Notes: generated by a model not told the origin, from the letters alone. Shown: positions 32,002-59,747, numbered from the stretch's first letter. The stretch: DNA of 64,000 nt from Candidatus Woesearchaeota archaeon (GCA_965205335.1 OZ242164.1:832001-896000), one strand, 5' to 3'. Numbers and translations: made by a program.

Positions 32002-32949
32002 TCAAGCAGTCAAAGGACAACTACTTGATTTTTTAAATTGCTCCAAATTTCCCCAATTTTTCTTTTTATAATTCCATGTGGTAAATTTCAGCCGTATATC
32101 AATGTGTATGAACTCGGCTTCCTTGTTCACTCCCATACCTTTAAAACCATATTTGCGAGCAGAACATATAAATGCTTTCATTTTTTCATAACTCCACCCC
32201 CTGGTACTGATATCAACCGCTGTTCCTCTTAAATGTTCGGAATTCCTGGCATCCGACACATCATCGTTATGTTTGGGGGATCTATAGGCACTGTTGATGA
32301 TAAGTGGTTTATTCAAACCAATGTCTTGGTGCACTGCTTTAAGTTTGGACCATACAATATCTCTGACTCCCTCATACCTCTTTCCGGGTCTTTCATCAGT
32401 GTAACAACCTCTATTGCAGTTGCAACTCACCACACATTCGCTTAATTTTATCATGCCTCCTCTCTCTATCTCATCCTTTATTTTCTCTTTATTTGTATTC
32501 GTCTTATCCTCATCCTTCCTATCCTCATCTGTCCTGTCCCCATCAGTCCTATCTTTATCCGCCCTATTCTCATTTAATAAATTCTTGAACTTCTCATGTA
32601 ATTTACCACCGCAACCTAAATTTTCTTTCTTTTCATTATCTATATCAGAACTATCACATTGCTTAAAATACTTTTCCCACATTTCCCATCTCTTAAAATC
32701 TTTCTCCTCACAACTCTTCTCTAAAAGCATATCCTTAGTACATCTTTCAATATTACACAACTTATCTGTTCTCTCGCACTTCTCAATTGCCAAAGCTTGG
32801 GAAGGAGTTAAAATAACATTAGGAGAATCCTGAAAGAACTTACCAACAACTAAAATTATAACTAAAATAACCACTCCTATAATGATTAGTTCTATAACCT
32901 TTTGAAGGGACAACTCAACAGCTTTTTTATTACCTATTGGGCTTCTCAT
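32002..32949 (-). CDS. Pilin-type class III signal peptide fused to peptidase M15A (Peptidase_M15_3) zinc peptidoglycan peptidase domain
   Basis: KKA|VELSLQKVIELIIIGVVIL; SAYRS, HLRGTAVD (Hx6D) and FIHIDIR. Confidence 0.85.
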   Translation of the reverse strand: MRSPIGNKKAVELSLQKVIELIIIGVVILVIILVVGKFFQDSPNVILTPSQALAIEKCERTDKLCNIERCTKDMLLEKSCEEKDFKRWEMWEKYFKQCDSSDIDNEKKENLGCGGKLHEKFKNLLNENRADKDRTDGDRTDEDRKDEDKTNTNKEKIKDEIERGGMIKLSECVVSCNCNRGCYTDERPGKRYEGVRDIVWSKLKAVHQDIGLNKPLIINSAYRSPKHNDDVSDARNSEHLRGTAVDISTRGWSYEKMKAFICSARKYGFKGMGVNKEAEFIHIDIRLKFTTWNYKKKNWGNLEQFKKSSSCPLTA

Positions 32950-32957
32950 CTTAAACT

Positions 32958-34439
32958 CTATCCCTTAATCACTTCAAAAGAATGGAAATATCTTCTAATC
33001 TTCCCGTGGATTTTAGCTTCAATTTCCAAATCAGGAATCTTAATATCTCCTAAAATACCTTTCTTATTCACAAGTGCAAACCCAATAATTCTTGAATCAT
33101 TCTTTTCAAACCTCTTAAAATTCCAGACTAATTTGAACTGATTTCTCCCCTTCATAACATGATTTGGTTCAGTTAATAAAAAAGAATTATCCCTAATCTG
33201 AAGATACCCAGGCATTCTAAAAATAATCTTCAACAAATCAATCTCGGATTCCTTTATATTTTCAAACCCAATTTTAACCTTCATACTTTTAACACCCTCA
33301 TGCTCAACTTTCTCAACTTCATAAATATCAGTTTCAACATCTAAAGGATTTGATGATTTTCTAATATACCAATAAGTTGCAACACATAAAACAATTAAAA
33401 CCAAAAGATAAAGTGTCAGATAATTAACTGAATAAGTTATAGATTTAGTCTCCCCTTTTTCCAGAGGAATGTTAAATTTTATTCCCTTGTCTGTTTTTTC
33501 ATAATTATCCGAACCTGATGATGAAAATAAGAATCTTTCAAAAAACCCAAGTTTTACATCCCTAACATAAGTATCAAAAACATTACCATTATTTGTTACA
33601 GTAATCATAACCTCATCTTCAAGAAAATTTGATTTAGGTTCAACAACTTCATTTATTTGCCTAATTTCTACAACATTTATTAAACTATTCGCAAACCATT
33701 CTTGAGCAGTGTTTGTATTATTCTCTGTGTGTCTAATAATAACTCTCGCCTCGTACTCCTTTGGATCAATCTTAGGAGATATTTCTGCCTGATAAACTTT
33801 ATAATTTAAAGATTTTGAAAAAGTATCATCAAAGTTCGCAATCTCATGTTCACCTAATTCTACTCTTACATTAACTGAAATTTCCTCTCCCATATTTTTT
33901 ACTTCAATAGTATAATCCAAAGGAGATGCAGGGGACACATCACTTACTGCAAATCTTGGATTAAAAATTATTGGAACAGAATTAGGTTTCTCGATTTTAA
34001 CACGGAACTTCACTAAAACTTCTTCATTTTTTCCTACTACCTTAATAGGAAGATCAAATTCCCCATTATACTCATTATCCTGAGAAATAATTATCTCCTC
34101 AGGGGAAATAACATCAGTACTGTAATCAAACTCTGAATTAGCACTATAACTAAAAGTAATCAGCTTTTTTTTGTTAATTCCTAAATTGAATGTTTTATAA
34201 TTTACTTCAGTATCCCATCCTTTCTGATCAAAAATTACAACTTCAAAGTTCTGAGAAGAATCCAAATTATTATTAACTTCAAGTGCGAATTCTCCATTAA
34301 TATCATCATTAAATACAATACTTTCCTGAGTTTCAATTACTACAGAAAAATCTCCATTTTCATTCAAAGTTATAGCAAAAGCACTACAAATGCCAAATAA
34401 AATCACAAAAAATGTAATAATAAAGGATTTAAAAATCAT
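32958..34439 (-). CDS. Hypothetical surface/S-layer-associated Ig-like protein with signal peptide and internal TM
   Basis: Signal MIFKSFII...SAFA; TM near aa 340; start set to 34439, behind a GA-rich SD. Confidence 0.7.
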   Translation of the reverse strand: MIFKSFIITFFVILFGICSAFAITLNENGDFSVVIETQESIVFNDDINGEFALEVNNNLDSSQNFEVVIFDQKGWDTEVNYKTFNLGINKKKLITFSYSANSEFDYSTDVISPEEIIISQDNEYNGEFDLPIKVVGKNEEVLVKFRVKIEKPNSVPIIFNPRFAVSDVSPASPLDYTIEVKNMGEEISVNVRVELGEHEIANFDDTFSKSLNYKVYQAEISPKIDPKEYEARVIIRHTENNTNTAQEWFANSLINVVEIRQINEVVEPKSNFLEDEVMITVTNNGNVFDTYVRDVKLGFFERFLFSSSGSDNYEKTDKGIKFNIPLEKGETKSITYSVNYLTLYLLVLIVLCVATYWYIRKSSNPLDVETDIYEVEKVEHEGVKSMKVKIGFENIKESEIDLLKIIFRMPGYLQIRDNSFLLTEPNHVMKGRNQFKLVWNFKRFEKNDSRIIGFALVNKKGILGDIKIPDLEIEAKIHGKIRRYFHSFEVIKG

Positions 34440-35382
34440 TTTCTCCCCCTTCCTCTTCTTTTGATTTAGCTTTAATTTTTTTAATCTCATCTTCTAAATT
34501 TAATTTAGAAATTATTTCTTTATATCTGTTTCGTATAGTAACCTCCGTAACTCCTGAAACATCTGAAATATCTCTTTGGGTTTTCCTCTCTCCTTCAAGT
34601 AAGCCTGCGATGTATAAAGCCGCTGCTGCAATTCCTATAGGACCACGGCCAGAAGTTAATTCAAGAGATAAAGCCTTTGATAGAATCTCAACAGCTCTTG
34701 ACTGGGTTCCAGCCCCATAATTTAGAACAGATGCAAATCTTGATATGTAATCTACCGGATTTGAAGGCAAAATCTTAATTCTAAGTTCTCTTGTAATATA
34801 ACGATAAGACCTTCCGATTTCTTTTTTATCAATTCCGGATGCTTCCGCGATCTCATCTAATGTTCTGGGGATATTTTGTCTTCTGCATGCTGCATATACC
34901 ACACCTGCTACAACAGATTCAATACTTCTCCCCCTAACTAAGTTTTTCTGAACAGCTTCAGTATACACCTTTCCTGCTTCCTCTTCAATTGAGGATGGTA
35001 GATTCAGAAAAGATGATAACCTCCTAAGTTCTCCTAATGCAATTTTAAGATTCTTTTCCATAACTGTTGAAAGTCTCTTCTGCCACCTCTTTAATCTCTG
35101 AAGCTTATATCTTTGTTTCTTATCCAGAGAAAAAGCATCTGATTCAGAACCAATTGCAGTTCCCATACCCAAATCAAACTTAGTATATGATGTAGGTGCA
35201 CCAGACCTTCTCATCTCGGAATCATCACTTTCTTCAAAATCCCTCCATTCCTTTCCAAGCGAAATATTCTTTCCATCAATTAGAAGCCCACAACTTCTGC
35301 ATATTATTTCTCCCTTATCCTTGTTGTTGTAAAGATTAGAACTTGCACACTCAGGACATTTTTTAATATTATCTCCACTCAT
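34429..35382 (-). CDS. tfb: Transcription initiation factor IIB
   Basis: CPEC/CRSC zinc ribbon, EWR.F, RGRSIES, PRTLDEIA and GVTEVTIRNRYKE. Confidence 0.97.
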   Translation of the reverse strand: MSGDNIKKCPECASSNLYNNKDKGEIICRSCGLLIDGKNISLGKEWRDFEESDDSEMRRSGAPTSYTKFDLGMGTAIGSESDAFSLDKKQRYKLQRLKRWQKRLSTVMEKNLKIALGELRRLSSFLNLPSSIEEEAGKVYTEAVQKNLVRGRSIESVVAGVVYAACRRQNIPRTLDEIAEASGIDKKEIGRSYRYITRELRIKILPSNPVDYISRFASVLNYGAGTQSRAVEILSKALSLELTSGRGPIGIAAAALYIAGLLEGERKTQRDISDVSGVTEVTIRNRYKEIISKLNLEDEIKKIKAKSKEEEGGENDF

Positions 35383-35748
35383 TTGTTATAAACTGTAATC
35401 TTTTAAAAAATATTCAAAATTCAATTCTATTACCACAAAGTTTTTAAAGTTTACTAAAAACAAATGGTTTTCAATTTATAATACTCTGTAATTACTATTA
35501 GTGCTAATTATATGAATTAAAGACTATTACTCAAAATATTTATGCATGAATTCTGACCACCATAATCAAATAAAAAATGAAAAGAAACATAAGAATATAT
35601 AGTCAGAGTTTCTATCTAATGATGTACTAAATTCTTTCTTTAAAGCCATATTTCAATGGAGAAATAAAATTACAAGTAAATCAATTTAGAAAAGTCCTCA
35701 TCCCAATAATTTTTTAAACTATTATTTCTTTCCTTTTATGAAGTTGTA

Positions 35749-36288: not shown

Positions 36289-36389
36289 ACTGCTCTCATT
36301 TATTCAAACACAGAAAAAATTTCTAATTCATCAATTCATAATATCAAGTAGTAACGAAAACATTAAATCATATTTCATTAGAAAATACT

Positions 36390-38825: not shown

Positions 38826-38904
38826 TTTCATATTTATATCTTTATCTTTCATTTATAAGATGCTATTTTAAGAATATACTTATTAATTGAAGAATTTTAA
38901 TCCT

Positions 38905-39539: not shown

Positions 39540-40421
39540 ATGGCTTTTTTAGCAGATAGTTTTGATAGATTTGGAATAGACATAGCAGGATTTTTAAGTG
39601 ATGAGTATTTTGTTATTGGTTTATTGTTTATTGCATTTCTTCTTGGAACTTTTGCTATGTTTAAGGGTCTTTTAAGATTTTCATTCAAAAATTCTGGTCA
39701 GTTTCAGAAAAAAGAAATAAATGTTATTGCATTAATGCTATCAATTATTAGTTCTGCTGGGATTTTCTTTATTTTCAGAGATAGCCCTTCTACAATGATT
39801 TATCTCTTTGGGGGATTTGGTGGTTTGTTTATTGTAATGTTTTTGATAATCTTTTTGATGCATACAATGTATACATTTGCAGAACATTTTAAGGATGAAG
39901 ATGGTCTTTTGGGCAAGGGAGTTGGATGGATTTTCATAATGTCTTTAGGAGTTGTTCTTAGTAGTTATCTGCTTCTTGGATATTCAAATCAAGTTATAAA
40001 AGGACTTACGAACAGTGGTTTATTTAGCTGGATTTCTAATATAGTTGGTGTTGTTACTGAACTTGCATTACTTGCTGCAATTATTTTTGGTTTTATATGG
40101 CTTTTTAAAGGCAATGGTTCGGAAAATAATGATAGTAATGCACATCCCTCATCTGATAATGATTCAGGAGAAGGAATTTTTGGTATTTCAAAGAAGAAAC
40201 AGAAGAATAGAAAGGATGCTGGGGAGATTAAAGGTGTTATGGGGGATATGGTAAAAGGGATTCAAAGGGCAGACAGTGCATTTCGTGAAAAACAGGAAAA
40301 GTTGCAGGAATTAAGTAGAATGGTTCAAGCGCAAGCAGATAACTCTCTTCCTCAACAAAACGAGCAACAAGAAGGAAGTTCTCAAGGAGGTGAAAATAAT
40401 GGAAGTAATCAAAGTGGTTAG
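39540..40421 (+). CDS. Multi-TM membrane protein A with C-terminal coiled coil and low-complexity tail
   Basis: About 5-6 TMs; KEINVIALMLSIISSAGIFFI segment shared with 43805-44596. Confidence 0.8.
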   Translation: MAFLADSFDRFGIDIAGFLSDEYFVIGLLFIAFLLGTFAMFKGLLRFSFKNSGQFQKKEINVIALMLSIISSAGIFFIFRDSPSTMIYLFGGFGGLFIVMFLIIFLMHTMYTFAEHFKDEDGLLGKGVGWIFIMSLGVVLSSYLLLGYSNQVIKGLTNSGLFSWISNIVGVVTELALLAAIIFGFIWLFKGNGSENNDSNAHPSSDNDSGEGIFGISKKKQKNRKDAGEIKGVMGDMVKGIQRADSAFREKQEKLQELSRMVQAQADNSLPQQNEQQEGSSQGGENNGSNQSG

Positions 40422-40446
40422 TTGTGAATTAGGAGGTGATTTTTGA
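40399..40446 (+). CDS. Putative 15-aa mini-ORF (MEVIKVVSCELGGDF)
   Basis: Perfect SD GGAGGTGA at 40386-40393, 5 nt before ATG; stop 2 nt before the next ATG. Confidence 0.35.
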   Translation: MEVIKVVSCELGGDF

Positions 40447-40448
40447 AA

Positions 40449-41777
40449 ATGTCAAGACGAAGAAGAGATAATGTAAAACTTATTATTGTTCAGAGAATAA
40501 TCCAACTTAATGATACTCTTATAACTGAAGTTACAAGATGGATTAGACAGATTAATGATATAGATGAAATTTTAAAAAAAGATGAGAATTTGGAAATTGA
40601 AGAGAAGGATATGAGTATGAGTTTTGGAAGAAGGAATTTTTCCAAGAAATACAAAGATTTATTTAAATCAATTCAAATGTATGATAACGATTTAAAAAAG
40701 AGACTTAACAAACTAGAGGAATCATTAGAACGTGAAAATAAAGTACTTGCAAAAGTTTTATCAGAAGTTAGTGTTAGAGAAGTTACAATATCTGCAAGTC
40801 TTTTTACAAGCATTGTAGAACATAACAAAGAACAGGTTAGAATTTACACAGATTTGCATAGAAATTATTGGAATTCATTCTTTGGCAATATTCAACAAGT
40901 AGTTGGAGCTTTTGAAGAGGAGGTTTCAGAAGATTCACGTTTGTTTGTAGAGAAGTTTAGCCATTTGTGTGATGTACTTAGAAATGAACATAGAGAAGGA
41001 AAACCTAATGTTGAGGACTTGTTTCTTCATCTCATAGAATGTGTCGACATATTAAACAGATATATACCAGATAATAATTCAAAAGAAGTATTCATACAAG
41101 GTATTGAAGAGAAATCACATGCAAAAAAATTTGCAGATAATTATTTCAATAGTAGAAATGTTCGAAATCAAATCTTTTCAAATAAAAACAAAATTCATAA
41201 ATTGATTTTAAAGGCGAGAGATGGATTTAAGGCCGAAGGGATTGATAAAGATGGTAGAAAGAAAATTAAGAAATTTACAAATGATGTACTTAAAATCCTA
41301 TTTAGAGGGATTGAGGAATTTAAGGATAGGATTGATGATTTGGGAGGAAGTGATAGTAGTTCAAGTGAAGGGACAGGAAGTCTTACCCGAGAAGAGAAAC
41401 AGAAAATAAAAGAGGCATGGAATCAGATATATAGTCGGATACCTAGTGGAACATTTAATACAAGTGGTATTGTACCAGAAGATAAAGTTACCTTAAAATC
41501 TCATTTGATGAATCTAATGGACACATTATTTGGAGGAGAGGAGAAAATTAAGGAGAATAATGGAAGTTATAAGTGTGCACAGTTTTCAAAAGTATGTAAA
41601 GAAATTAGCTCATCAATAGAAGGTAGGGCTAAGCAAAGTAATGTATGGAATGATTTACTTGATTATGCAAAAAAGAATTATCTCAGTATCACCGATTGTA
41701 ATGATCAAAATGTCAATGAATTTCTCCAACGTTTACATTATGTAATATTAGATTTACAGAATCTTGAGAGGTTCTAA
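40449..41777 (+). CDS. Hypothetical alpha-helical/coiled-coil protein B
   Basis: SD GGAGGTGA at 40432-40439; helical heptad patterns; TTG 40443 is an alternative start. Confidence 0.75.
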   Translation: MSRRRRDNVKLIIVQRIIQLNDTLITEVTRWIRQINDIDEILKKDENLEIEEKDMSMSFGRRNFSKKYKDLFKSIQMYDNDLKKRLNKLEESLERENKVLAKVLSEVSVREVTISASLFTSIVEHNKEQVRIYTDLHRNYWNSFFGNIQQVVGAFEEEVSEDSRLFVEKFSHLCDVLRNEHREGKPNVEDLFLHLIECVDILNRYIPDNNSKEVFIQGIEEKSHAKKFADNYFNSRNVRNQIFSNKNKIHKLILKARDGFKAEGIDKDGRKKIKKFTNDVLKILFRGIEEFKDRIDDLGGSDSSSSEGTGSLTREEKQKIKEAWNQIYSRIPSGTFNTSGIVPEDKVTLKSHLMNLMDTLFGGEEKIKENNGSYKCAQFSKVCKEISSSIEGRAKQSNVWNDLLDYAKKNYLSITDCNDQNVNEFLQRLHYVILDLQNLERF

Positions 41778-43740
41778 AAATAGTAAGATGATCTTTTCAT
41801 TTAAGCATAAAAATCTGTATTCTGATGTAGGGAATGGGCAATGTGTGTTTATTCCATTTAATTTTAATTATATAAAAATAGAATCTTTGTATATTAAAAA
41901 TGAAGCAGGAAATCAGTTCAGTTACAGAATATATTTAGATTTGAATTGCCCATTCACACTTACTCAAAAAGGAGTGTATAGATTTAGAATTCAAAAACTA
42001 AGAACTTCAGGAAATGTAGTTTATCATTATTATTTGCTTAAAGAATGTGTTCAATTGCTAAAAGAAATATTAGAACCAATTCTTCTTGAAATTATTAAAG
42101 GTTCTGGAGATAGACACGCTGACAAACTAACAACACTTGATGAAATAAAAAGAATAAATTCTAAGAAAGAAGATAAAGGAAATGATAAGATTAGATATAC
42201 TGTTTTACACGTTGAAATAGATTCTGTACCTCAAGGGGAGGAACGAAACCCATTTTATTTTATTCAAAGCCCTGACGAAGAATTATTAACACAACTTTCG
42301 GATTTTTCTGAAATGGCAAATGTTATTTATAGCCGTAAAACAATAATGGAAGGCAATGAGGCAAAGAATAAGGTTAAAGAAATATTTAATAAATATGATA
42401 TACCTGAAGATCTTCAAATGCAATTAAGATCTGCATTCAAGATTGATGCTTTTATAGATAGGGATATGAAGAAAATTCAAGTTGGGTGCGGTGGTATTCT
42501 ATATGGTCCTTTTGGAACAGGAAAGACTTTTATTATTCAAAACCCAATTAGAGAAATTTTTGAAGGAGTTTTAGGTTTTGGATATGAAGAGGTTAATCTG
42601 GTTGAAAATGTAGGTACAGACGATAGTATGTATTGGGGAGCAGCAATGAGAACAGTAAATAGGGTCTTCATGCCTATATTTAAGAAAATTCAAACAGAGC
42701 AAAAGCCTTATTTCTACTTTGTTGATGAAGGAGATAAATTTGCCAAGACTCCATCGCATGCAGATGATGATGAAGGGGCAGCGGGTATTAAGAATCTATT
42801 AAATCCTAAGGCGTATCCGGGATTAATATTATGTTTGAACACAAATCTTAAGTCTTCTGAGTTAAATATGGCTTTAATTGGTAGAAGATTAGAAGGTGTT
42901 GAGATTGGGTATCCTAATGAGGAAACTTGTTTTAAAATGTGGAAGATATATAAAAGACTCGTTTTTGGTGAAGATAATGAAGGGAATATTACAGATGAAC
43001 AATACAGAGAATTAGCAAAAATTGTTGCTGGTAGAATTGGTATTGATGCTATTGAAAGTTTTTGTTCACATTATAGAACGCTTACACAATCCGAGATAAA
43101 TGAGGATGTGGATTTTATTGAGTTTAAAAATAAATTTTTTAGGTATGTCTTAAAAAGAGTAAATGATAGAATGGAAAATGACATAAATAAGATAACTTCC
43201 AATCCTGCCACTAATCGTATGAGTGATAGTGAAATTGAGAGTATTAGAAGAGATGCACAGGAGCAAATAAGGAGTATAACAGCAGCATTTTCTGGAAAGG
43301 ATTCAACAGCTATAAATTCTGAATTAATAGAAAAACTTGCTGAGAGTGGAGAGAAGAATCTCTATTTTAAAAATTACAAAATGTTTCGTAAATTACTTTG
43401 TGAGGGTGGAGTGAAGGATGCTATTTTTAAGTACTATAATAATAAATCAGAAATAGATGATGAAGATATAAGCAAGTTAGAAGAATGTTTCGGAAATATA
43501 GATTTTATTATAAGATTTTATGAATATGCACCTTCTGATGTTAAAAATAAATTATTGCCTCTTATTAATAGCATAAATACACTTAGAAATTACATGATTC
43601 ATATTCTATTAGATTTGAATTCTAACAGATTTCGAACAGAGTTTCCACATCTTATAACTGAGAGTGGAAAAAATTTAAGTAGTGAACAAATTGTGGGAAT
43701 TACTACATACCTTATGAGGGAATTGCCAAGTCTTGAATAA
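41764..43740 (+). CDS. Divergent classical-clade AAA ATPase (CDC48/Vps4/PAN-like module) with unknown N- and C-terminal domains
   Basis: Walker A GPFGTGKT, pore-loop-like SMYWG, Walker B YFVDEGD, SRH-like NTN...LNMALIGRRL, then YPNEE. Confidence 0.85.
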   Translation: MRGSKNSKMIFSFKHKNLYSDVGNGQCVFIPFNFNYIKIESLYIKNEAGNQFSYRIYLDLNCPFTLTQKGVYRFRIQKLRTSGNVVYHYYLLKECVQLLKEILEPILLEIIKGSGDRHADKLTTLDEIKRINSKKEDKGNDKIRYTVLHVEIDSVPQGEERNPFYFIQSPDEELLTQLSDFSEMANVIYSRKTIMEGNEAKNKVKEIFNKYDIPEDLQMQLRSAFKIDAFIDRDMKKIQVGCGGILYGPFGTGKTFIIQNPIREIFEGVLGFGYEEVNLVENVGTDDSMYWGAAMRTVNRVFMPIFKKIQTEQKPYFYFVDEGDKFAKTPSHADDDEGAAGIKNLLNPKAYPGLILCLNTNLKSSELNMALIGRRLEGVEIGYPNEETCFKMWKIYKRLVFGEDNEGNITDEQYRELAKIVAGRIGIDAIESFCSHYRTLTQSEINEDVDFIEFKNKFFRYVLKRVNDRMENDINKITSNPATNRMSDSEIESIRRDAQEQIRSITAAFSGKDSTAINSELIEKLAESGEKNLYFKNYKMFRKLLCEGGVKDAIFKYYNNKSEIDDEDISKLEECFGNIDFIIRFYEYAPSDVKNKLLPLINSINTLRNYMIHILLDLNSNRFRTEFPHLITESGKNLSSEQIVGITTYLMRELPSLE

Positions 43741-43804
43741 TTTTATTGATTAATCCTAAGAAGTGAAAGCAAATTTTTATAAGTCATTAAGATAAGGAAA
43801 GGAT

Positions 43805-44596
43805 ATGTTTAGAAAATATTATTTAGCTCTTTTTGGTTTTCTCTTAGCAATAGAGAATTCTTTCGCTAATACCATTACAGAAACTCTCGTGGACACCATT
43901 AGCAGTATTCTTGGTGAAAGGGGCTTGTCAAGTTTAATAACTAATAAATATGTTGTTTTTGCTCTAATATTTATAGGAGTTTTAGTAGGAACTTATAGTA
44001 TTCTTAAAATTCCTCTGTCTATGGCATTTAAAAGCCATCAAAAAGAAGCCAATGTAATTTCAATAATGATATCATTAATATCAACTACTGGGATGTTTTT
44101 TATTCTTACTAACGGAGAACCTTCTCGAGTAGAAGCCGCAATTGCTATTTTTGGAGGAACAATTGGTCTTATAGTTCTATCCATATTTGGAATTTTACTT
44201 TTGGTTTTAGTTGATTATATACTCGTAAATACACTTGAGAGAGAAAGACTATCTCGCTGGTGGGTTGCTGGAATGATTGGTACAGGACTTTTAGTAACTT
44301 CCGTGTTATTAGTAGTTATAGACAAAACAGTAGAATTATATACTGAAACTTCCATGACTCAGTGGTTAAGTGGGTTACTTTTATCATTAGAAAATATATT
44401 TACTATTATCTTAATTTTAACGTTCATCTATATTATTTTCCGAAGTAGGAGAAAAAGCAAAGAAGGGCAAGAATTATTAAAAAGCAATCCTAATATTAGA
44501 AAAGCACAAAATATTATTAAAAAGATTAATAAGAACAATAAAAAAATGAAAGAAATACTAAGGGATATTAAACATAAAGTTGGAGGAGGTTCATAA
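43805..44596 (+). CDS. Multi-TM membrane protein A' (paralog of 39540)
   Basis: KEANVISIMISLISTTGMFFI, IFGG..GL and WLS..L motifs; signal peptide; C-terminal coiled coil. Confidence 0.8.
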   Translation: MFRKYYLALFGFLLAIENSFANTITETLVDTISSILGERGLSSLITNKYVVFALIFIGVLVGTYSILKIPLSMAFKSHQKEANVISIMISLISTTGMFFILTNGEPSRVEAAIAIFGGTIGLIVLSIFGILLLVLVDYILVNTLERERLSRWWVAGMIGTGLLVTSVLLVVIDKTVELYTETSMTQWLSGLLLSLENIFTIILILTFIYIIFRSRRKSKEGQELLKSNPNIRKAQNIIKKINKNNKKMKEILRDIKHKVGGGS

Positions 44597-44597
44597 A

Positions 44598-45641
44598 ATG
44601 GCAGGAAATTTAATAGCGGATTTAATCGAAGATTTTAAAAGTTTAGGGACATTGGCTGAAGTAACTCAAGATGATTTAAAAACTCTTGAAGGTTTATCTG
44701 TAAATCCTGATGAGTTAGATGAAGGTCCACTGGCAAGTATAATTTCACCATTTAAAAAAATGTATCGTAATAATCACTTAAAACTAACAAGTGATGTAAA
44801 TGGAGCTATTGAACACCTTAAAGGAGTTAGTAAGTATAGTGATGAAATAGTAAAATGGCTTGGAGACTTTAGAGTTATAAGAGAACATTCTGAATTAATG
44901 AAGTTATTTAATAATCCTAATCAAGAAGGTGCTACGTTCTCAAGTCAAATTGAAGGATTGTCTCGAAATTTTGATTTATATGTCCAAAAGGTAGGTATGT
45001 CTTTAGAAAAAGAAGAAAATTTAATAGGTGAATCTGCTGAAATAGAACATATGTCTACTTATCGTGATAAAATAGTTAAGAAATTAGAAGAAATTAAAAG
45101 TATTCAAGGGGAGAATAATTATAAAGACATTAAGGAAATGTTTATAGAGTATGCTACAGGAGAGATAGGTAGGAGAATTAGAGATAGTACATCTATAAGT
45201 AAAGTAGTAAGAGAAGTTCTTCCTCAAATTAATCAGTTAATACTTCTGGCAGAAGATGAAATTTTTAAGAAACTTAATGGAAATTTTGATAGTTATAGGA
45301 GGGGAATTATTAGAGGTTTCTTTGTAATATTTTTTGGAGATTTAGAAAAGTTTAAAGAAGAAAATTCTAATGAATATCTAGAAAATTGCCTTAAAGAAAT
45401 TAATGGTCTAGAAACATTGAAATATGGGAATTTTGAAGTAAATATTAAAGACCCAAGTAGAATTGAATATAAAGGTAAGCCCAATGAAATCTTCAAACTT
45501 TCTTCTACCACGTTATTGCATTCAGTTCTTATAAGTCCAGATGGTCTTTCTTTAAGGTTTAAAGATACAAATGATGGAAAAGAAGTGACTAAAAAGATTT
45601 CTACATTAAACCTAAGGACACCTCCTCCCCAAAAGATGTGA
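44598..45641 (+). CDS. Hypothetical helical protein B'
   Basis: SD GGAGGT at 44585-44590 before ATG 44598; Pro-rich C-terminus LRTPPPQKM. Confidence 0.75.
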   Translation: MAGNLIADLIEDFKSLGTLAEVTQDDLKTLEGLSVNPDELDEGPLASIISPFKKMYRNNHLKLTSDVNGAIEHLKGVSKYSDEIVKWLGDFRVIREHSELMKLFNNPNQEGATFSSQIEGLSRNFDLYVQKVGMSLEKEENLIGESAEIEHMSTYRDKIVKKLEEIKSIQGENNYKDIKEMFIEYATGEIGRRIRDSTSISKVVREVLPQINQLILLAEDEIFKKLNGNFDSYRRGIIRGFFVIFFGDLEKFKEENSNEYLENCLKEINGLETLKYGNFEVNIKDPSRIEYKGKPNEIFKLSSTTLLHSVLISPDGLSLRFKDTNDGKEVTKKISTLNLRTPPPQKM

Positions 45642-45784: not shown

Positions 45785-46507
45785 ATGGAAAGTTCAGGTA
45801 TTAAAAGAAAAGCTAGCGAGTCAGGCACTCCTAATGGTAGTGATAGAGAAAATAGGTTAACAGAAATCATAGGTTATGTAACCATTGGTAATTTAAATTC
45901 ATATCGGAAGAAACATCCTAAAATAGCAACAGGAGTATTGGCTCTAGCATTAGCAGGTGGTATATTAGGAATTAAATATTGTGGTAATAATGAAGCAGTT
46001 AATGTTCCTCCTACTGTTCAAGAGATCTATACTGAAAGATCAAAGGAGAAAAAACCTGATGAAGTAACAATTTTAGAGGATACATCTAAAGGATCTGATG
46101 TTCCAGCTACTCCACAAACACCTAGTGTTCCAAGTAAAAGTGTTGAGAGGCAACCATATAGTAAAGGACCAGAGAAAGAACCAACAAAGGTCCTCTTACA
46201 AAAAAAAAGCCATTTAGAAGAAATGTGTCCTAACTATAATCCATCTGAAGAGGACAGAGATGATATACTTAGATGTATAAATAAGGAAGCACGTTATTTA
46301 GTTCACGGTAAGCGTGAAGACCAACAATATTTAACAAGTATATCTGGAGTAGTTAATCTTTTAGAAGATGAAAGAATAAGAGGAATTAAGAAAAGAGCAA
46401 TTCTTAGTCCTTATGCTCAAAGATGTGGAATTTCAGAAGATGAAATAAGAAGTTCGAATATAGAAGATTTAGAAGAAAAGGTAAATAGTTGTTATACCTC
46501 AAAATAA
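45785..46507 (+). CDS. Single-TM protein with Pro/Lys/Glu-rich linker and small Cys-containing domain
   Basis: TM ATGVLALALAGGILGI; own TATA at 45755-45762. Confidence 0.7.
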   Translation: MESSGIKRKASESGTPNGSDRENRLTEIIGYVTIGNLNSYRKKHPKIATGVLALALAGGILGIKYCGNNEAVNVPPTVQEIYTERSKEKKPDEVTILEDTSKGSDVPATPQTPSVPSKSVERQPYSKGPEKEPTKVLLQKKSHLEEMCPNYNPSEEDRDDILRCINKEARYLVHGKREDQQYLTSISGVVNLLEDERIRGIKKRAILSPYAQRCGISEDEIRSSNIEDLEEKVNSCYTSK

Positions 46508-46871: not shown

Positions 46872-48296
46872 ATGAAAATGAAAACAAATTTAGAGGGTTT
46901 GTGTATACGAGGACTTGCATCCTCATTTAAAAAAAGTATAACGACTGCCGCATTAGCGGCAATGATGGCATCGGGTCCACAAGTTTCCGCACAACAAGCG
47001 GCAATGATGGCATCGGGTCCACAAGTTTCCGCACAACAATATAATCTCGCAGAAAGAACAGATTGTGTTAGTGAAAATGTGGAAGTAGTTTCTCTTGATG
47101 ATAAACAAGGATATTCAGTTGCAAAAACATATTGTCCTAGTAAAGGTAAACCAGTTGGACAATTTAGTGATAGACTTCGAGAGTCTTTGGGTTTGGAACA
47201 GGATGAAAGTAAAGTAATAGAGGCATATTATCTTGATGATTCAGGAAAGCCTGCACTTTCTCCTATTGGTGTGTATTGTACTTTGAATGATTCTCATATG
47301 ACTGACTTAACTCATTTAGGAAGAGATCATCCTTCAGGTGTCCCACTTGGAGTTAGAGTTAGAGAATCTACAGAAGAAGATGGATGTGCTGTTGAATCAG
47401 AGGTTCATTATGCGATTGAAAATGATTTCAATGAAAAATTTGAGGATTTAACTGGTAGAATTAGAAAATTAGAAGAGATTGGTAGTAGTCGCCCACAATC
47501 AGAAAAATCATCGGAAGCACCAGTAGAACCACCTGAGGTACAAGCAGTTCCTGCAGAACCAGTAGAACCACCAACGGAAGTTGTACAAATTCCTCATTTC
47601 GTAGTACCATTAAGAGGTAACAGCACTAAGAATTTACCAGTTGTAGTTTACGAAGATAATTTAGTTAAATCAGTTATAGGATTAGATCCAAGGAATGGAT
47701 ATTCTCCAGAATATGGTAATGCAAGTTATGACTCATTCCAGCTTTCTAATGAAGAAATTGCGAAAGAGTTATTAAGACAAGCAAATTTGGAAAAATTAAT
47801 ACATTCTGTTTCCTCAAAGATAGGTGCTATGGCTGTTAAAGAACATTATGGAGGTGCCCCTGAATTAGGAAGAGATATAATTTTACATGAAACTTTAGGT
47901 GATCTTGGTCTCTCTAAAAAAGAGTTACTTAATGGTGGGTTCAATTACGGAGCAGATTCGGCTGCAGCAGACTTAGTAGTAGAAAGAGCTAAGGAGGGAG
48001 GAATATATACAATGCAAGATCTTGCTGGACTTACAGACAAAAATCTTCTTTCAAAGTTTCTGGATCTTGGATATAAATTTATAACGGTTAAACGTATTGT
48101 CCCCGGCAGTTCTTTTAATCATGTGCGTACTAAAGGAACAAGAAGAGCATTAAACAAAGAGATTAAACGTGCTAAGAAGGATGTTTTTAAAACATGTGGA
48201 TCTTTAGGCTCCCAGAATGGGAGGATAGCATGTGCTTTTGATAGAGGATATCGTGTAATAGGAGAAATTGTTGGGAACAGAGGTAATAGAAAATGA
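46872..48296 (+). CDS. Hypothetical secreted protein
   Basis: Signal-like N-terminus; Pro/Glu-rich linker; ATGA overlap with the next gene. Confidence 0.7.
   Translation: MKMKTNLEGLCIRGLASSFKKSITTAALAAMMASGPQVSAQQAAMMASGPQVSAQQYNLAERTDCVSENVEVVSLDDKQGYSVAKTYCPSKGKPVGQFSDRLRESLGLEQDESKVIEAYYLDDSGKPALSPIGVYCTLNDSHMTDLTHLGRDHPSGVPLGVRVRESTEEDGCAVESEVHYAIENDFNEKFEDLTGRIRKLEEIGSSRPQSEKSSEAPVEPPEVQAVPAEPVEPPTEVVQIPHFVVPLRGNSTKNLPVVVYEDNLVKSVIGLDPRNGYSPEYGNASYDSFQLSNEEIAKELLRQANLEKLIHSVSSKIGAMAVKEHYGGAPELGRDIILHETLGDLGLSKKELLNGGFNYGADSAAADLVVERAKEGGIYTMQDLAGLTDKNLLSKFLDLGYKFITVKRIVPGSSFNHVRTKGTRRALNKEIKRAKKDVFKTCGSLGSQNGRIACAFDRGYRVIGEIVGNRGNRK
46956..47039. repeat. Perfect 42-bp tandem duplication (AAMMASGPQVSAQQ x2)
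   Basis: gcggcaatgatggcatcgggtccacaagtttccgcacaacaa occurs twice. Confidence 0.97.
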
Positions 48297-48871
48297 ATAA
48301 AAAATTAATTAAAATAGTAGGTGCTGCAGCGTTATTATATGGCGCATCTACATTAGAGGCAGGACCACTTCATACTGGTTATGTTGCTAATTTGGAGAAA
48401 AAATATGTAAAAAGAATGTGTAAAGATAACAAAGGATTAAGGGCTAAATATAGAAATAATCTAGAACAGTGTGTACAAGATGTTAATGGAAGTTTCAATC
48501 AAAAAGCTCAGGTAGTTAAGAGGTTAATGGATTTCAATGTTGCAACAGGATATCTTGGTGATAGTCTGCCTCGTCTACCTCAATATTCTATGGTAAGTGC
48601 TTCTGAAGAAGACAAACTTAGAATAGCAGCAAAAGTAGCAATAGATGTGACTCCAGAAACATTGTCATACTTTAATGCCACAATGCTAGAAGTCAAAGGA
48701 CACAATAAAATTAAGGGAGACCTTAATGAAGCAATAAGAGATGATATAATTGCAACGGGAGTACTTACTGCTGTGGGTTCGTTTTTCTTAGGAAATGGTG
48801 TAGCGAAAGCAGTTGAAGGAGTTAGTCATAAATCCCCTAAGATTATGATAAGAGCACCGGGTGTAAATTAA
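48293..48871 (+). CDS. Hypothetical secreted protein with hydrophobic Gly/Ala-rich C-terminal helix
   Basis: Signal MNKKLIKIVGAAALLYGASTLEA; C-terminal IIATGVLTAVGSFFLG. Confidence 0.7.
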   Translation: MNKKLIKIVGAAALLYGASTLEAGPLHTGYVANLEKKYVKRMCKDNKGLRAKYRNNLEQCVQDVNGSFNQKAQVVKRLMDFNVATGYLGDSLPRLPQYSMVSASEEDKLRIAAKVAIDVTPETLSYFNATMLEVKGHNKIKGDLNEAIRDDIIATGVLTAVGSFFLGNGVAKAVEGVSHKSPKIMIRAPGVN

Positions 48872-53446: not shown

Positions 53447-53505
53447 TCCTTTCAATTTCATCATTTTCTTTAACAAATACCTCTAAATTCAAGTTAAACT
53501 TTTTT

Positions 53506-54633: not shown

Positions 54634-54640
54634 TTGTCCT

Positions 54641-54703: not shown

Positions 54704-54797
54704 AACTTAGCCACAGTTTAACCTTATATAAAAGTTTGTTTTAAGAACAAAAAAATCAAATGTTAATATTTATAAATTCCCCATTCCAGATAAAAAT

Positions 54798-56048: not shown

Positions 56049-56159
56049 TCATTATTTTCTAAAGTTAATTGTGTTTTTCTTGGCTTTAGATGTTCATTTT
56101 CGTCCGATTAATTTATAAATAAGAAAGCATTTACTTAGAATAGTAACAAGTAGATACTA

Positions 56160-58475
56160 TTGAAAGTGACAAATCAAGACAATTCTAGAGAAGAAGGACA
56201 AGAGAATTTAGAAGAGAAAATAGGGCTCTTTGGTAAATTCAGAGGACGAGGGAAGAAGAAAAAAGCAATAGTTGATGTGAGTTTTATGTCTTTACCAGGT
56301 CATAAAATTAATCTCAATGAAGGAGGAGGTGTTGATATTAATTCTGAAGAAGGTAAGGGTGTATCTTTGAAAATTCACAAAGAGAGGGGAAAGACTAGTA
56401 TTAATCCTACAGATGATCCGAACATTGCACATGTAAATTCTGATAGAGAGACTATTTTTGAGTCTTCTTTCCCTGGCATGGATGTTTTTGTTGGTAAAGG
56501 AGGGAATCGTTTTAAACCTATTGATGATAGAAATATTTCTTTTAACCTATTAGACAGGATGTTTTTGAATTTTGGTGGTAATATGAAAAATTATTTTCTT
56601 GCTAGACCTACATCCAGAAAAGGTATAAATTATATCATTAATGGTGTGATTGGGGTGGTTGAAGCTATCATTCCAAGAGGTGGAGGATTGCTTACTAAGT
56701 ATGGTGAGAAGGATACTAAATTAGTTCCTGTCTCCGAGTCAGGTACATCTGTTGAAGTAGGTAAGGAAGTTAAGGTGGTTGTTCCAAAAGATAGAGGATT
56801 GCTTACTAAGTATAGTGAGAAGGATACTAAATTAGTTCCTGTCTCCGAGCCAGGTACATCTGTTGAAGTAGGTAGGAAAGTTAAGGTGGTTACTCCAAAA
56901 AGAAAAAATTTATCTGCGAAATTTGGAGGAGATGGTACTGATACAATAAGTCCCACAGATAATTCTGTTCCAGTTGTTAATGCAGGTAGAGAATTTGAAG
57001 CTAGAACTTTAGAGGAGGAGATATTATCAGTGGAACTTGGCAGGAATTGGGCTATATTTAGACCTAAAGGCAAAGGGGATGATAACCCATCTGTAACTTT
57101 GCATGATAAGATAGAAGTTACGCCTCTGAAAAGTAGAGGTATAATTTGGAATGTGATAAAGAAAGGAAGATCAGCGGTGGTGACCGCTGAACCTATAAAA
57201 AAGGGAGGAAAATTTCTTAGAATGCCCAATGGAATACTTAATCTTAATAATTTTAAATATAAGTTGAGTGATGGGGGAATATTTGATTTTAATAAAGAAA
57301 AATGGAAGAAAAGATGGGTTAAAGGACTTTCTTTGATGGTATTAGGTAGCGCATTAGCAGGCGGAGTATTAAAATATCAATACCTAATGAATAATAATGA
57401 AGGGAGTTCTCCACAACAACCTCGTTCCAAGCGATTTGATAGTATACCAGAATTAGTAGAGGCAAATGGTATTTATATTTATCATAAGGGTGCTTTTGAT
57501 AGATGGACAGATGTCTGGTATGATATTAATACATCGCAAGGATTGTGTGAAAAAGATACTTATGTAACAGATAGAGTAAAAAGCAGACATCTTCTAGTAA
57601 GACTTGATGGGCGTGTCCCAAGGATTGTAAATACAAATGGGAACAATCAGAAAGAGAAAAAAAACCGAGGAAGAATGGTAGTTTCTCGTGAGATTCTAAT
57701 GAATTATGATTTGAGAATAGGTCATGGAGGAGATTTTGTTCTCCCTATAAGAAAAGGTGAACAAGGATATCCTTTTGCATTATATTGTAATGGAAGTAAA
57801 ATGGGAAAAGCAGTTGAGAGGTATCTTTCAGGAACGATACCACCTAATCAATGGTGGAAGGGGGCAGGATTGAAGAACAAGGAACTTAAATATGGTTCAG
57901 CATTTGAAGGAATTTTTAAAGATTTTAAAGATAATGAGGGAAATCCTACACTGCCCCAAGAACTTACACACTTACTTAAAGCACAAGCACTTGTTGAGAG
58001 TAGATTTATACCAGAGTCTATATCTCCTTCTGGTGCGAGGGGAATTCTGCAATTATTAAGAGGTACTCTTAGTCATTATGGTGTCAAGAGAGAGAATGAT
58101 TTTAAAATCCCTTATCAAATCAGATGTGCTTATGCACACTATGAAGATAAAATTAAGGAATTCAAACGATCATTGGGAGATATAAGAGCATCTGATGAAG
58201 ACAAAGCAAAACTTGCACTTTATTTAGCGATGCAGGCATATCATAGTGGGGAAGGTAATGTAAGTGGGATATTAAAAAAACCAGAATCAAAAGGAATCTT
58301 AGAAAAACTATTATCTGAAAACAGAAGTCCTCAAGAAGTAGTGCATGGATTGATAATATCAAATTATGGATTTGGAAAAATTTCTAATCGCAAAATAGGA
58401 GAAGAGTCCATAAATTACTTACCAAAGATCTTTGCCGCAGAAAGATTTCTATCAGAGAATGAATTGAGAAAGTAG
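56160..58475 (+). CDS. Membrane-anchored lytic transglycosylase (SLT/GH23-like) with long N-terminal repeat region
   Basis: ALVESRF (catalytic Glu), SGARGILQL, AYHSGEGNV and ESINYLPKI; TM at about aa 390-405. Confidence 0.85.
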   Translation: MKVTNQDNSREEGQENLEEKIGLFGKFRGRGKKKKAIVDVSFMSLPGHKINLNEGGGVDINSEEGKGVSLKIHKERGKTSINPTDDPNIAHVNSDRETIFESSFPGMDVFVGKGGNRFKPIDDRNISFNLLDRMFLNFGGNMKNYFLARPTSRKGINYIINGVIGVVEAIIPRGGGLLTKYGEKDTKLVPVSESGTSVEVGKEVKVVVPKDRGLLTKYSEKDTKLVPVSEPGTSVEVGRKVKVVTPKRKNLSAKFGGDGTDTISPTDNSVPVVNAGREFEARTLEEEILSVELGRNWAIFRPKGKGDDNPSVTLHDKIEVTPLKSRGIIWNVIKKGRSAVVTAEPIKKGGKFLRMPNGILNLNNFKYKLSDGGIFDFNKEKWKKRWVKGLSLMVLGSALAGGVLKYQYLMNNNEGSSPQQPRSKRFDSIPELVEANGIYIYHKGAFDRWTDVWYDINTSQGLCEKDTYVTDRVKSRHLLVRLDGRVPRIVNTNGNNQKEKKNRGRMVVSREILMNYDLRIGHGGDFVLPIRKGEQGYPFALYCNGSKMGKAVERYLSGTIPPNQWWKGAGLKNKELKYGSAFEGIFKDFKDNEGNPTLPQELTHLLKAQALVESRFIPESISPSGARGILQLLRGTLSHYGVKRENDFKIPYQIRCAYAHYEDKIKEFKRSLGDIRASDEDKAKLALYLAMQAYHSGEGNVSGILKKPESKGILEKLLSENRSPQEVVHGLIISNYGFGKISNRKIGEESINYLPKIFAAERFLSENELRK
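56683..56900. repeat. 111-bp (37-aa) tandem repeat in the SLT1 N-terminal region
   Basis: GLLTKY(G/S)EKDTKLVPVSE(S/P)GTSVEVG.. twice; gaggatt at 56683 and 56794. Confidence 0.93.
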
Positions 58476-58484
58476 TTAATAAAA

Positions 58485-59747
58485 ATGGATAATAAAAACC
58501 TTTACAGTAAAATAAAAAAATATGGAGCTTCGGCAGGACTGCTGTTTGGGCTCTTTTTAGGAGGTTGTGATTACAATTTTCATGATAAAAATAACTCTTC
58601 AGATGCTCAAACTAATAAAGTTACAAAAACCCTTCCTTTAGAGTATTCCAAAAGACATCCATCAATACAAGCCTTAATTAAAGATAGAGGTGTTGAATAC
58701 TACCCTCCTAGTTCTTTTCAAACATGGACTCATTCATTAGTTGATATTTGTACAGGCACAGGTATTTGCTCAAAAGACGAATATAAGAGGCAAAGGTACA
58801 GACGAGTTTTTATAAGACTTGATGGAAAACTTGCAGGAACTGTAAATAGTAATACATTACCAGCAAGTATTAGAGGAGGTCAGCCCAGACGATTTAATGA
58901 AACAGAATGGAAACAAGTTGACGTGAGAATTAAAAGTGGACATGATTATGTTATTCCTTTTAATCAAGGTGATAAAGGATATCCATTTGGATTTAAATGT
59001 AATGGAAACATATTAAGAATCGGAATTGAGAGATACCTAAGGGGAGATATTAGAGGAGAGTATGGAGAATATGGGGAATATAATGTAGATTTTTACGAAG
59101 CATCATGGGGTGTTTATGTTGAAAATGGATTTCGGAAAAGAGGGATATTGCCAGAAGAGATATTTTATATAGTTAATGGTATGGCAAATGTTGAGAGTAA
59201 TTTCCTAAGAAGTGCAGAAAATAGTTCAACGGGTGCAAGGGGAATACTTCAACAGATGCCCAAAACTCTTCAAGATTGTGGAGTTCCTCAAAGTATGCAT
59301 AAAGATAGACTTGCTCAACTTGATTGTGCTTATAGATATTTTGAAGATAGATTTTCTCATTATGAACCACTAATAAATAATATAAAGATTAGTTCAGAAC
59401 AAAGAAATGAATTCTTGCTTTATCTGGCTGTTCAGGCTTATCATACAGGACAAGGTAATATAGAAAAAATATTAAAAGACCCAGAATCAATTAAAATTGC
59501 AAATAGATTTGTAGAAGAAGGAAGAGACCCTATTGAAATAGTACATGGGTTAACGATATTAAATTATGGACTTGGAAATAATGGGACTAAGGTAGGATTA
59601 GTATCTAGTTCTTATCTTCCCAAAGTAATAGCATCAGTTAGAATCTTAGAAGAAGTTAGACGAAAAAGAAGAAAAGAAGGGAATAGGATTAAAGGATATT
59701 CACTCCCTCCTCTACTCTTTCCTGAAGAAGAGGAAGGTAATAAATAA
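58485..59747 (+). CDS. Lytic transglycosylase (SLT/GH23-like), putative lipoprotein; paralog of 56160
   Basis: LFLGGC lipobox-like; ANVESNF, TGARGILQQMP, AYHTGQGNI and SYLPKV. Confidence 0.87.
   Translation: MDNKNLYSKIKKYGASAGLLFGLFLGGCDYNFHDKNNSSDAQTNKVTKTLPLEYSKRHPSIQALIKDRGVEYYPPSSFQTWTHSLVDICTGTGICSKDEYKRQRYRRVFIRLDGKLAGTVNSNTLPASIRGGQPRRFNETEWKQVDVRIKSGHDYVIPFNQGDKGYPFGFKCNGNILRIGIERYLRGDIRGEYGEYGEYNVDFYEASWGVYVENGFRKRGILPEEIFYIVNGMANVESNFLRSAENSSTGARGILQQMPKTLQDCGVPQSMHKDRLAQLDCAYRYFEDRFSHYEPLINNIKISSEQRNEFLLYLAVQAYHTGQGNIEKILKDPESIKIANRFVEEGRDPIEIVHGLTILNYGLGNNGTKVGLVSSSYLPKVIASVRILEEVRRKRRKEGNRIKGYSLPPLLFPEEEEGNK

Follow-up and report, generated by a model that had tools for sequence, protein, structure and literature searches.

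A chromosomal slot with exchanged, putatively surface-anchored murein hydrolase heads in a genus of Woesearchaeota

To what use does a DPANN archaeon put enzymes of families that cleave bacterial walls, and do the genes lying around them make up one apparatus? The question is raised by a stretch of 64,000 nucleotides, hereafter the window, from Candidatus Woesearchaeota archaeon (GCA_965205335.1, OZ242164.1:832001-896000; G000:C1:832001-896000 in our numbering, G000 being the label of this genome). A sequence-only reading had proposed that an M15A peptidase, two SLT proteins, a giant PKD protein, orphan secreted proteins, and a membrane/AAA module form an attachment and wall-breaching kit directed at bacteria. 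All these components were recovered in the present analysis on the basis of open reading frames (ORFs), Pfam matches, and hydropathy (Table 1). Instead of one functional kit, the region comprises three independent units with different phyletic patterns, among which the M15 gene is the informative one: it occupies a conserved slot in which the catalytic heads have been exchanged from one genome to another. Judging from these comparisons, it is rather probable that this gene encodes a surface-anchored, cassette-swapping murein hydrolase acting on contact with bacteria.

The genome of G000 consists of a single contig of 1,199,749 bp (95% complete). The window has a GC content of ~30%, and archaeal markers (TFB, thermosome, aIF2-gamma, Hef-type helicase-nuclease, and Pelota-like genes) were identified in the window or elsewhere in the genome. 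We take Nanobdellati, the kingdom containing Nanobdellota, to be the NCBI name for DPANN. Given these markers, the small size of the genome, and the Woesearchaeota/Nanobdellota neighbours of one of its surface proteins in the ESM Atlas, G000 is likely to be a DPANN archaeon. Comparisons were performed in a genus set of 20 kin genomes, G000 included, in a sample of 41 genomes composed of G000, 19 relatives of the same genus, and 21 genomes from other families of the order, and in 401 genomes sampled from the phylum (the phylum sample), one of the SLT matches counted there coming from the unpublished genome G227. Domains were called with Pfam at the curated cut-offs, and export signals and anchors were predicted by simple hydropathy. 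Four SLT or M15 genes were identified in G000, three of which are located in the window and the remaining one, an SLT gene, 63 kb downstream of it; a rough scan of 176 other signal- or anchor-bearing proteins of this genome did not yield any further wall hydrolase.

A conserved slot and its exchanged heads

The M15 gene, which will be denoted X, lies directly downstream of a gene encoding a surface protein, sec510, and converges with a TRM5/TYW2-type methyltransferase gene, the upstream flank of the slot being the gene for transcription factor B (TFB). The sec510 protein (492 amino acids, aa) has a signal peptide, a transmembrane (TM) segment at residues 358–376 (in the numbering of the 510-aa ORF), and a predicted cytoplasmic tail. 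Its nearest clusters in the ESM Atlas, which would place it in a family of 460–490-aa proteins common in Woesearchaeota/Nanobdellota, are hypothetical proteins from these taxa, some of which carry DUF11, and a weaker row, a COG1361 S-layer-family/CARDB cluster with a score of 0.85, is to be taken as a lead only. Homologues of sec510 were found in all 19 genus relatives and in 34 of the 41 genomes searched, the genome under study included. In the 19 mapped loci of the relatives, X is consistently located directly downstream of sec510, and none of the 20 genus genomes has an empty slot. Since the two genes are on the same strand, 8 nt apart in the window and overlapping or abutting in the relatives, they are likely to be co-transcribed. 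TFB is present upstream of sec510 in most of the genus loci, and adjoins it in G017, G002, and G012 (TFB 92–93% identical). A TRM5/TYW2 homologue lies at most 103 nt from X, or slightly overlaps it, in 16 of the 19 relatives, the exceptions being G001 and G003, in which one unrelated ORF intervenes, and G010, in which the contig ends.

The heads carried by X belong to various families. Strong support for a murein hydrolase head was obtained in 16 of the 20 genomes (weak hints in three, none in one), and six families are strongly supported in the slot: M15_3 in G000 (over the Pfam cut-off); SLT along with M23 in G001 (E 8.8e-22 and 1.1e-13); Amidase_2 in G002 (1.2e-21); the PF11860 muramidase in G003, G005, G008, G009, G012, G014, G017, and G018 (1.5e-18 to 5.6e-41); M23 in G007 (6.6e-16), which also shows an SLT-like stretch (phmmer 5e-7); SLT in G016 (23.0 bits vs. 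a cut-off of 21.3); and a head resembling PDB 9udh_A, named "lytic transglycosidase," in G006, G010, and G019 (2.3e-33, 7.5e-24, and 4.5e-27). The heads of G019 and G006 also match 9k2v_E, named "Internal protein." In the phylum sample, PF11860 was detected in two of the 401 genomes, and since it is otherwise so rare, its frequency in the slot is specific to this lineage.

In the X protein of G000, Peptidase_M15_3 (PF08291) scored 60.7 bits vs. a cut-off of 23.2 (63.3 bits in the whole-genome scan). An N-terminal anchor and a Cys-rich stalk make up aa 1–125 (nt 32575–32949), with a strong hydrophobic anchor at residues 18–36 according to hydropathy, and the M15A head corresponds to a Pfam stretch at aa 199–284/285 (approximately nt 32095–32355). 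In the alignment with the Streptomyces albus DD-carboxypeptidase 1LBU (1lbu_A), the Zn ligands of which we take to be His154, Asp161, and His197, residue His239 falls on His154 and Asp246 on Asp161; a candidate third ligand, His282, was placed via the FIHID motif at 280–284 and not by alignment. The head is 29–39% identical to M15 endolysins and peptidases among the matches listed, and 468 phage records match it overall. In PHROG, phrog_894 was matched (E 1.6e-20), and matches with endolysins and lytic tail proteins were obtained.

Two modes of head exchange were observed. The comparison between G008 and G016 shows a clean replacement of a cassette between conserved flanks: the DNA of these two genomes is 95% identical through sec510 to ~20 nt inside X and 92% identical across TRM5/TYW2, and the bodies of X, which encode a muramidase in one case and an SLT head in the other, have no detectable similarity. 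In the second mode, the head is replaced behind a conserved N-terminal part (residues 1–125, the N-module), as in the pair formed by X of G000 and P0009, a 321-aa homologue found in the search for M15 homologues. In a global alignment of these two proteins, 100 of 124 positions are identical within residues 1–125 (81%), vs. 46 of 162 in the remainder, where the alignment is forced, and Pfam gives no hint on P0009 beyond a Hedgehog/LAS-fold match that is weak (E 0.0027). The presumed GyrA and TFB companions of P0009 share 90%-identity clusters with the window proteins; P0009 would fit a sister strain carrying the same locus. When the N-module was searched for in a set of 5.8 billion proteins, nothing besides P0009 was returned. 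Among the relatives, the P0009 search located the N-module in G017, G002, and G012, directly after the TFB and sec510 homologues, and the heads behind it are a PF11860 muramidase, an Amidase_2, and a PF11860 muramidase, respectively. On the maximum-likelihood tree of sec510 (19 rows, G018, in which the gene is interrupted by a stop codon, being omitted), at least 11 changes of head state are required.

A hydrophobic N-terminal helix is present in all 20 X proteins, and a Cys-containing stalk usually lies between this anchor and the C-terminal head. The helix is preceded by KK[G/A] in 13 of them, and four X proteins begin directly at the helix without any basic stretch. N-termini resembling that of X are also carried by small pilin-sized proteins elsewhere in G000, a genome in which Peptidase_A24 and T2SSE were each matched twice. 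Twelve of 13 other candidate N-termini gave no match with the class III signal and pilin models at E≤10, and one gave an E value of 0.44. The curated models do not recognize the N-terminus of X, and its delivery on a pilus is therefore no more than a possibility.

The SLT proteins, the substrate, and the proposed action

The SLT domain (PF01464, GH23) was identified in two adjacent genes of the window, SLT771 and SLT420, with scores of 36.2 and 30.9 bits vs. a cut-off of 21.3, and in the third copy of the genome with 54.3 bits. SLT771 and SLT420 are tandem paralogues (phmmer E 5e-65, 37% identity) sharing a middle domain, which is preceded in SLT771, a predicted membrane-associated protein, by a repeat-bearing N-terminal half and in SLT420 by a lipobox-like N-terminus; the SLT domains extend over aa 604–711 of the former, with Glu613, and aa 218–338 of the latter, with Glu237. 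According to the sequence-only reading, all the wall enzymes carried export signals. This is clear in the case of the M15 protein, and plausible in that of SLT420, since its short hydrophobic stretch, which resembles a lipobox, ends in a Cys conserved in its two archaeal orthologues, whereas in SLT771 hydropathy does not indicate any signal at the N-terminus, and the segments at 155–171 and 387–403 are only weakly hydrophobic.

We aligned seven SLT sequences: SLT420, the C-terminal half of SLT771, the two archaeal orthologues, and three other homologues, at least one of which is bacterial (Marinobacter sp.). The residues E237-S238, G253/L255/Q256, and Q317-A318-Y319-H320-G322 (SLT420 numbering) were found to be invariant, and the E-S motif aligns weakly with IESGG of Escherichia coli EmtA (E 0.056). 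The whole SLT420-type unit has bacterial homologues, such as a hypothetical protein of Marinobacter. In a Foldseek search of the PDB with the AlphaFold2 model of SLT420 (mean pLDDT 66.9), all but two of the matches listed were lytic transglycosylases (MltF, MltD, MltC, MltE, Slt, and Cj0843), the best E value being 1.2e-3, just above the 0.001 line, with a TM-score of ~0.3. The M15 and SLT enzymes both look active, their catalytic motifs being intact.

The third SLT protein (811 aa, G000:C1:957334-959769, L063:9068-11503, plus strand) begins with a K/E-rich stretch, crosses the membrane in four predicted TM segments, and ends in an SLT domain showing the canonical motifs ES, GLMQ, and AYNGG. 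Its gene adjoins that of a divergently oriented DUF87/HerA-type ATPase (L063:6962-8290, minus strand), and the pair recalls the VirB4-like ATPase and the VirB1-like hydrolase of conjugation and DNA transfer systems. Similar ATPase N-termini ("MYDIILGR...GKQYVQMGQTSSLSNPIY") occur near the X slot in G002, G009, G012, G013, and G017, and truncated ORFs with the ATPase core motif occur near it in G011 and G016. In a locus from a different family of the order (L128, G030:C26), two SLT genes (5798-6991 and 7046-7810, both on the minus strand) adjoin a sec510-like gene; the association of sec510-like genes with wall hydrolases may thus extend beyond the genus in another arrangement.

As regards the substrate, no match with Mur_ligase_M or with the transpeptidase of penicillin-binding proteins (PBPs) was obtained in G000, the controls being positive in 12 and 10 of 14 genomes, respectively. 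The synthesis of pseudomurein also requires a Mur-ligase homologue. It would therefore seem that G000 makes neither murein nor, by extension, pseudomurein, and since the Mur ligase and PBP matches are absent, the substrate of these enzymes is presumably foreign murein. Amidase_2, M23, M15, PF11860, and SLT are murein-cleaving families which attack different bonds of one polymer. In this genome without any PBP match, G000:C1:733442-734386 (L051:14885-15829, minus strand) encodes a 314-aa protein which carries a signal and belongs to the Beta-lactamase2 family (E 4.8e-22); it could be an unneeded defence against bacterial beta-lactams or another murein-related enzyme. A tlyC-like CorC_HlyC gene of G000 was given no weight, the same search having matched 11 of the 14 control genomes.

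That murein cleavage is under selection is supported far more strongly by the comparison of the slot than by the proximity of the genes. If murein were not the selected target, a slot which is always filled and always anchored, with enzymes directed at different murein bonds, would be difficult to account for. Since the heads cut the glycan, the MurNAc-L-Ala amide, or the peptide of a polymer that the producer does not make, bacterial murein would be the most economical target, and the anchoring of X suggests action on contact. In the mechanism we propose, X would be co-transcribed with sec510 and exposed at the external surface of the membrane beside this major surface protein, with its head outside, where it would open the murein of a bacterium touched by the cell, whether a partner, a prey, or a competitor. 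The tandem SLT proteins would add cleavage of the glycan, and the head would be replaced by recombination, either from one conserved flank to the other or behind the N-module, retuning the enzyme to different wall chemistries. We infer that the target of X is a living bacterium; sequence alone does not separate parasitism, predation, competition, and scavenging.

Several points weigh against taking X as a contact-acting murein hydrolase. Enzymes of the GH23 family and of the LAS fold can also act on other glycans or peptides. In G004 and G013, the head matches VgrG3-like_C, which would be a seventh family, at sub-threshold level only, and searching the PDB with these two head sequences gave nothing relevant; the SLT match of the head of G011 is also sub-threshold, and X of G015 (173 aa) has no match. 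No known cell-wall-binding domain (LysM, PG_binding_1, SH3, etc.) was detected in the 20 X proteins, SLT771, or SLT420 with Pfam at E≤0.01. The N-terminus of X is not recognized by the Pfam and NCBIfam models as a signal of any class, that of the M15 protein gave no match with the Class_IIIsignal and pilin models at E≤10, and the outward-facing position of the head is predicted from hydropathy alone. Outside the genus, the sec510-like genes (G025, G038, and G040) have other neighbours, and the slot must therefore be regarded as a feature of the lineage, not of DPANN as a whole. Most of the 20 genomes are draft metagenome-assembled genomes, and a search of sequencing runs listed no RNA run containing the sequence. 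Lastly, the 95% identity of the flanks in G008 and G016 could reflect close strains or a binning overlap; the difference between the cassettes stands either way.

That the genus lives on bacteria, as an episymbiont or a predator, can be put forward tentatively at most. The slot would in this case be a determinant of host range, a membrane- or pilus-borne wall drill with a head matched to the peptidoglycan of the partner, and the type of head would predict the type of bacterial partner. The statement made in the sequence-only reading that characterized DPANN hosts are archaea agrees with the literature, every cultivated DPANN archaeon being described in PMC11291902 as depending on an archaeal host; the authors of PMC8204110 raise as an unsettled question whether bacteria are used by some DPANN.

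The same enzymes might form a diffusible or surface antibacterial weapon serving competition rather than attachment to a host or feeding. Such a role has been shown for the haloarchaeal peptidoglycan hydrolases (PGHs), which kill bacteria according to the relevant part of PMC12352652, and the turnover of the heads fits an arms race. The N-terminal hydrophobic anchor present on every X nevertheless points to a cell-bound enzyme and not to a released one, the slot is filled in all 20 genomes instead of being patchily occupied, and the genome is small (1.2 Mb), which makes this explanation fairly unlikely.

The AAA/TM/PKD cluster and the case for a single kit

Table 1. Positions of the features described, counted from the first nucleotide of the window.
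Feature	Position	Strand	Evidence
TRM5/TYW2-type methyltransferase, convergent downstream flank of the slot	30631..31848	+	Pfam E 1.5e-28
X (M15 slot gene), 315 aa	32002..32949	-	Peptidase_M15_3 E 1.7e-16
sec510 surface protein	32958..34436	-	Hydropathy; no Pfam match
TFB (transcription factor B), upstream flank of the slot	34429..35382	-	Pfam TFIIB E 1.7e-43
AAA module as a whole (5-TM, helical 444-aa, AAA, 5-TM, and 353-aa proteins)	39540..45641	+	
First 5-TM protein of the AAA module	39540..40421	+	Hydropathy
AAA ATPase, 658 aa	41764..43740	+	Pfam AAA domain
Second, paralogous 5-TM protein	43805..44596	+	Hydropathy
Orphan protein, 240 aa, signal-/anchor-bearing	45785..46507	+	
Orphan protein, 474 aa, signal-/anchor-bearing	46872..48296	+	
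Orphan protein, 192 aa, signal-/anchor-bearing	48293..48871	+	
PKD protein, 1516 aa	48896..53446	+	5 PKD stretches (Pfam)
SLT771, 771 aa	56160..58475	+	SLT E 4.9e-9
SLT420, 420 aa	58485..59747	+	SLT E 2.2e-7

Among 1.84 billion cluster representatives, only 52 are related to the AAA protein at E≤1e-3. PF00004 was detected in all 24 members of the family, GPxGxGKT is invariant, D321-E322 was taken to be the Walker B motif, and the pore loop, for which the family consensus is YVG, reads YWG in the protein encoded in the window. The model (pLDDT 81.3) matched the core of p97, Rpt, and FtsH in Foldseek with an E value of 5e-9. These features fit the profile of a classic-clade AAA ATPase and would be compatible with a protein-threading motor. 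The AAA protein was found in eight of the 41 genomes, all of which belong to the genus (8/20). The alignment of the 5-TM protein matched 15 of 301 genomes across the order, the matches outside the genus being mostly weak and partial; the AAA/TM module is lineage-specific. In a search for related loci with the AAA alignment, only generic AAA genes were retrieved via their Walker motifs, and no member of the family; no usable match was obtained in the ESM Atlas with the 444-aa helical protein.

Based on tblastn searches and ORF maps, the order of the cluster is a 5-TM protein, the helical protein, the AAA protein, a 5-TM protein, an X-like protein, two to four unrelated proteins, and a protein of ~190–214 aa. 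The PKD gene then follows in G011, G002, and G001, and the locus of G012 stops short of that position. The PKD protein has an N-terminal hydrophobic signal according to hydropathy. No Pfam, PHROG, or NCBIfam match was obtained with the three fast-evolving orphan proteins, and the genes located at their positions in G002, G011, G012, and G001 show no detectable similarity to them. In G011, the position of the 240-aa orphan, inside the AAA/TM-PKD cluster, is taken by an SLT protein (383 aa, E 9.6e-13). This is the only direct link between the cluster and wall hydrolysis, and given this position the 240-aa orphan may be a hydrolase gene that lost its head. The anchor of this orphan (…LALAGGILGIKY) resembles the weak TM segment of SLT771 (…SALAGGVLKYQY), with a phmmer E value of 0.022, and the 474-aa orphan shows an exact tandem duplication near its N-terminus (AAMMASGPQVSAQQ twice). 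The AAA/TM/PKD cluster can be regarded as a separate, putative lineage-specific surface system.

The idea that the M15 protein, the SLT pair, the PKD adhesin, the orphans, and the AAA/TM proteins form one co-inherited attachment and wall-breaching apparatus appears improbable in the light of these data. All these parts do lie within 28 kb, G000 and G011 share synteny over the block that starts at the TM protein and extends to HisRS, and the SLT protein of G011 is located inside the cluster. However, housekeeping genes (TFB, KH protein, GyrA, NFACT, HisRS, and aIF2-gamma) separate the parts, and the region is therefore not a single operon, as the earlier reading had itself pointed out. That reading had named phylogenetic profiling as a check, and the parts turned out not to be inherited together as a set. 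In the 41 genomes, SLT was found in 29, M15_3 in four (two over the cut-off), and SLT420-type proteins in six; in the phylum sample, the corresponding numbers are 193 for SLT, 13 for M15_3, and 10 for both, out of 401. The genomes carrying M15 tend to carry SLT as well (10/13 vs. 193/401 overall; one-sided Fisher p 0.03, kin not being independent), which speaks in favour of a kit. Within the genus, the AAA module is distributed independently of SLT (both in six genomes, the module only in two, SLT only in eight, neither in four; Fisher p 0.54), and in G002 both the module and the PKD protein are present with no SLT match. In the M15-bearing genomes, M15 and SLT are never adjacent among the SLT positions listed, and the SLT420-type genes of the relatives are not beside HisRS or aIF2-gamma. 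What holds of the integrated reading is the active-looking enzymes, the foreign murein substrate, and the comparison of the M15 slot, whereas the single 28-kb kit has to be abandoned.

Scavenging, in which the enzymes would digest the wall debris of dead bacteria for carbon and nitrogen, is even harder to credit. Secreted nucleases and solute-binding proteins are encoded in G000, and the recycling of cell material is discussed in the relevant part of Vigneron et al. (PMC9723730). On the other hand, the three markers tested, AnmK, glucosamine-6-P isomerase/deaminase, and GH3/NagZ, gave no match in G000, which makes this use of the enzymes less likely. That X is left over from the lysis cassette of a virus or mobile element, or that the enzymes are intended for the wall of the archaeon itself or the pseudomurein of an archaeal host, can practically be dismissed: the heads do resemble phage endolysins (the phrog_894 and phage-record matches given above), yet in all 20 genomes the slot is flanked by the genes for TFB, a conserved surface protein, and a tRNA methyltransferase with no viral genes, no Mur-ligase homologue, which pseudomurein needs too, was found in G000, and the five families listed above are all murein-cleaving, each at a different bond.

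Other features of the window and the genome were noted. A putative transposase/integrase-like ORF of 287 aa is located at 16524-17387 (minus strand), and the first 50 residues of a 65-aa fragment encoded at 61787-61984 (minus strand) are identical to its N-terminus; these ORFs represent a single insertion element present twice, in one case as a truncated copy. The ORF at the start of the window (2-1297, plus strand) carries HPFNDGNGR, which we take to be the Fic/AMPylation motif. Giant surface proteins of 1940–5178 aa are encoded in G000 (L027:8181-15383, L029:1-7320, L074:2361-8183, and C1:355289-370825, among others), and the three of them examined for domains contain cadherin, LRR, and fn3 repeats. 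For a genome of 1.2 Mb, this repertoire of adhesins is large. G000 further encodes two secreted Exo_endo_phos nucleases.

Comparison with known systems

X shares its catalytic families (M15, Amidase_2, PF11860, SLT, and M23) and the swapping of modules with phage endolysins and virion-associated lysins. It differs from them in that it is fused to a membrane anchor and occurs in an archaeal housekeeping neighbourhood with no phage genes nearby.

Polymorphic toxins combine a constant N-terminal trafficking or anchoring part with interchangeable C-terminal heads exchanged by recombination, with a cognate immunity gene downstream and often orphan heads. The X locus shares with these systems (Zhang et al., 2012, as cited in PMC6393860) the constant N-terminal part and the variable enzymatic heads. 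In contrast, since TRM5/TYW2 abuts X, there is neither an immunity gene nor an array of orphan heads beside it, and in some X pairs the whole gene was replaced and not the tip alone. A producer lacking the target polymer would need no immunity. In the passages of Makarova et al. (2019; PMC6393860) dealing with archaeal polymorphic toxins and DPANN pilins, no wall hydrolases are mentioned.

The large extracellular SLT/GH23 proteins of Woesearchaeota and Pacearchaeota have already been proposed to act on bacterial walls, by binding or degrading them (Castelle et al., 2021, PMC8204110; Vigneron et al., 2022, PMC9723730), and SLT771, SLT420, and the third SLT protein fit the presence of SLT in small DPANN genomes described there. 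In the sections concerned, these authors describe SLT/GH23 only, and no syntenic slot, other families, or cassette exchange, although their supplements may list more. More generally, we found no published description of a fixed slot with exchanged murein hydrolase heads, and individual genes may be listed in the supplementary tables of these papers, which lay outside the search. The sec510-X-TRM5/TYW2 arrangement can serve as a marker locus in population metagenomes, and its heads form a small set suitable for assays.

The closest parallel is that of the PGHs surveyed in PLoS Biol in 2025 (PMC12352652). As far as its main account goes, that study likewise deals with bacterial-type PGH domains in archaea, which are diverse and prominent in Nanoarchaeota, and catalytic domains were proposed to have been replaced repeatedly. 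The survey demanded a known wall-binding domain, and since none was detected in X, the X proteins would not have been counted; surveys of this kind are thus liable to undercount archaeal wall hydrolases. Unlike the PGHs described in that account, which are patchy or plasmid-biased, X combines an anchor with a fixed, always-filled chromosomal slot. The idea that archaeal enzymes of this kind target bacterial walls has therefore been published before, and the slot gives it markedly stronger comparative support.

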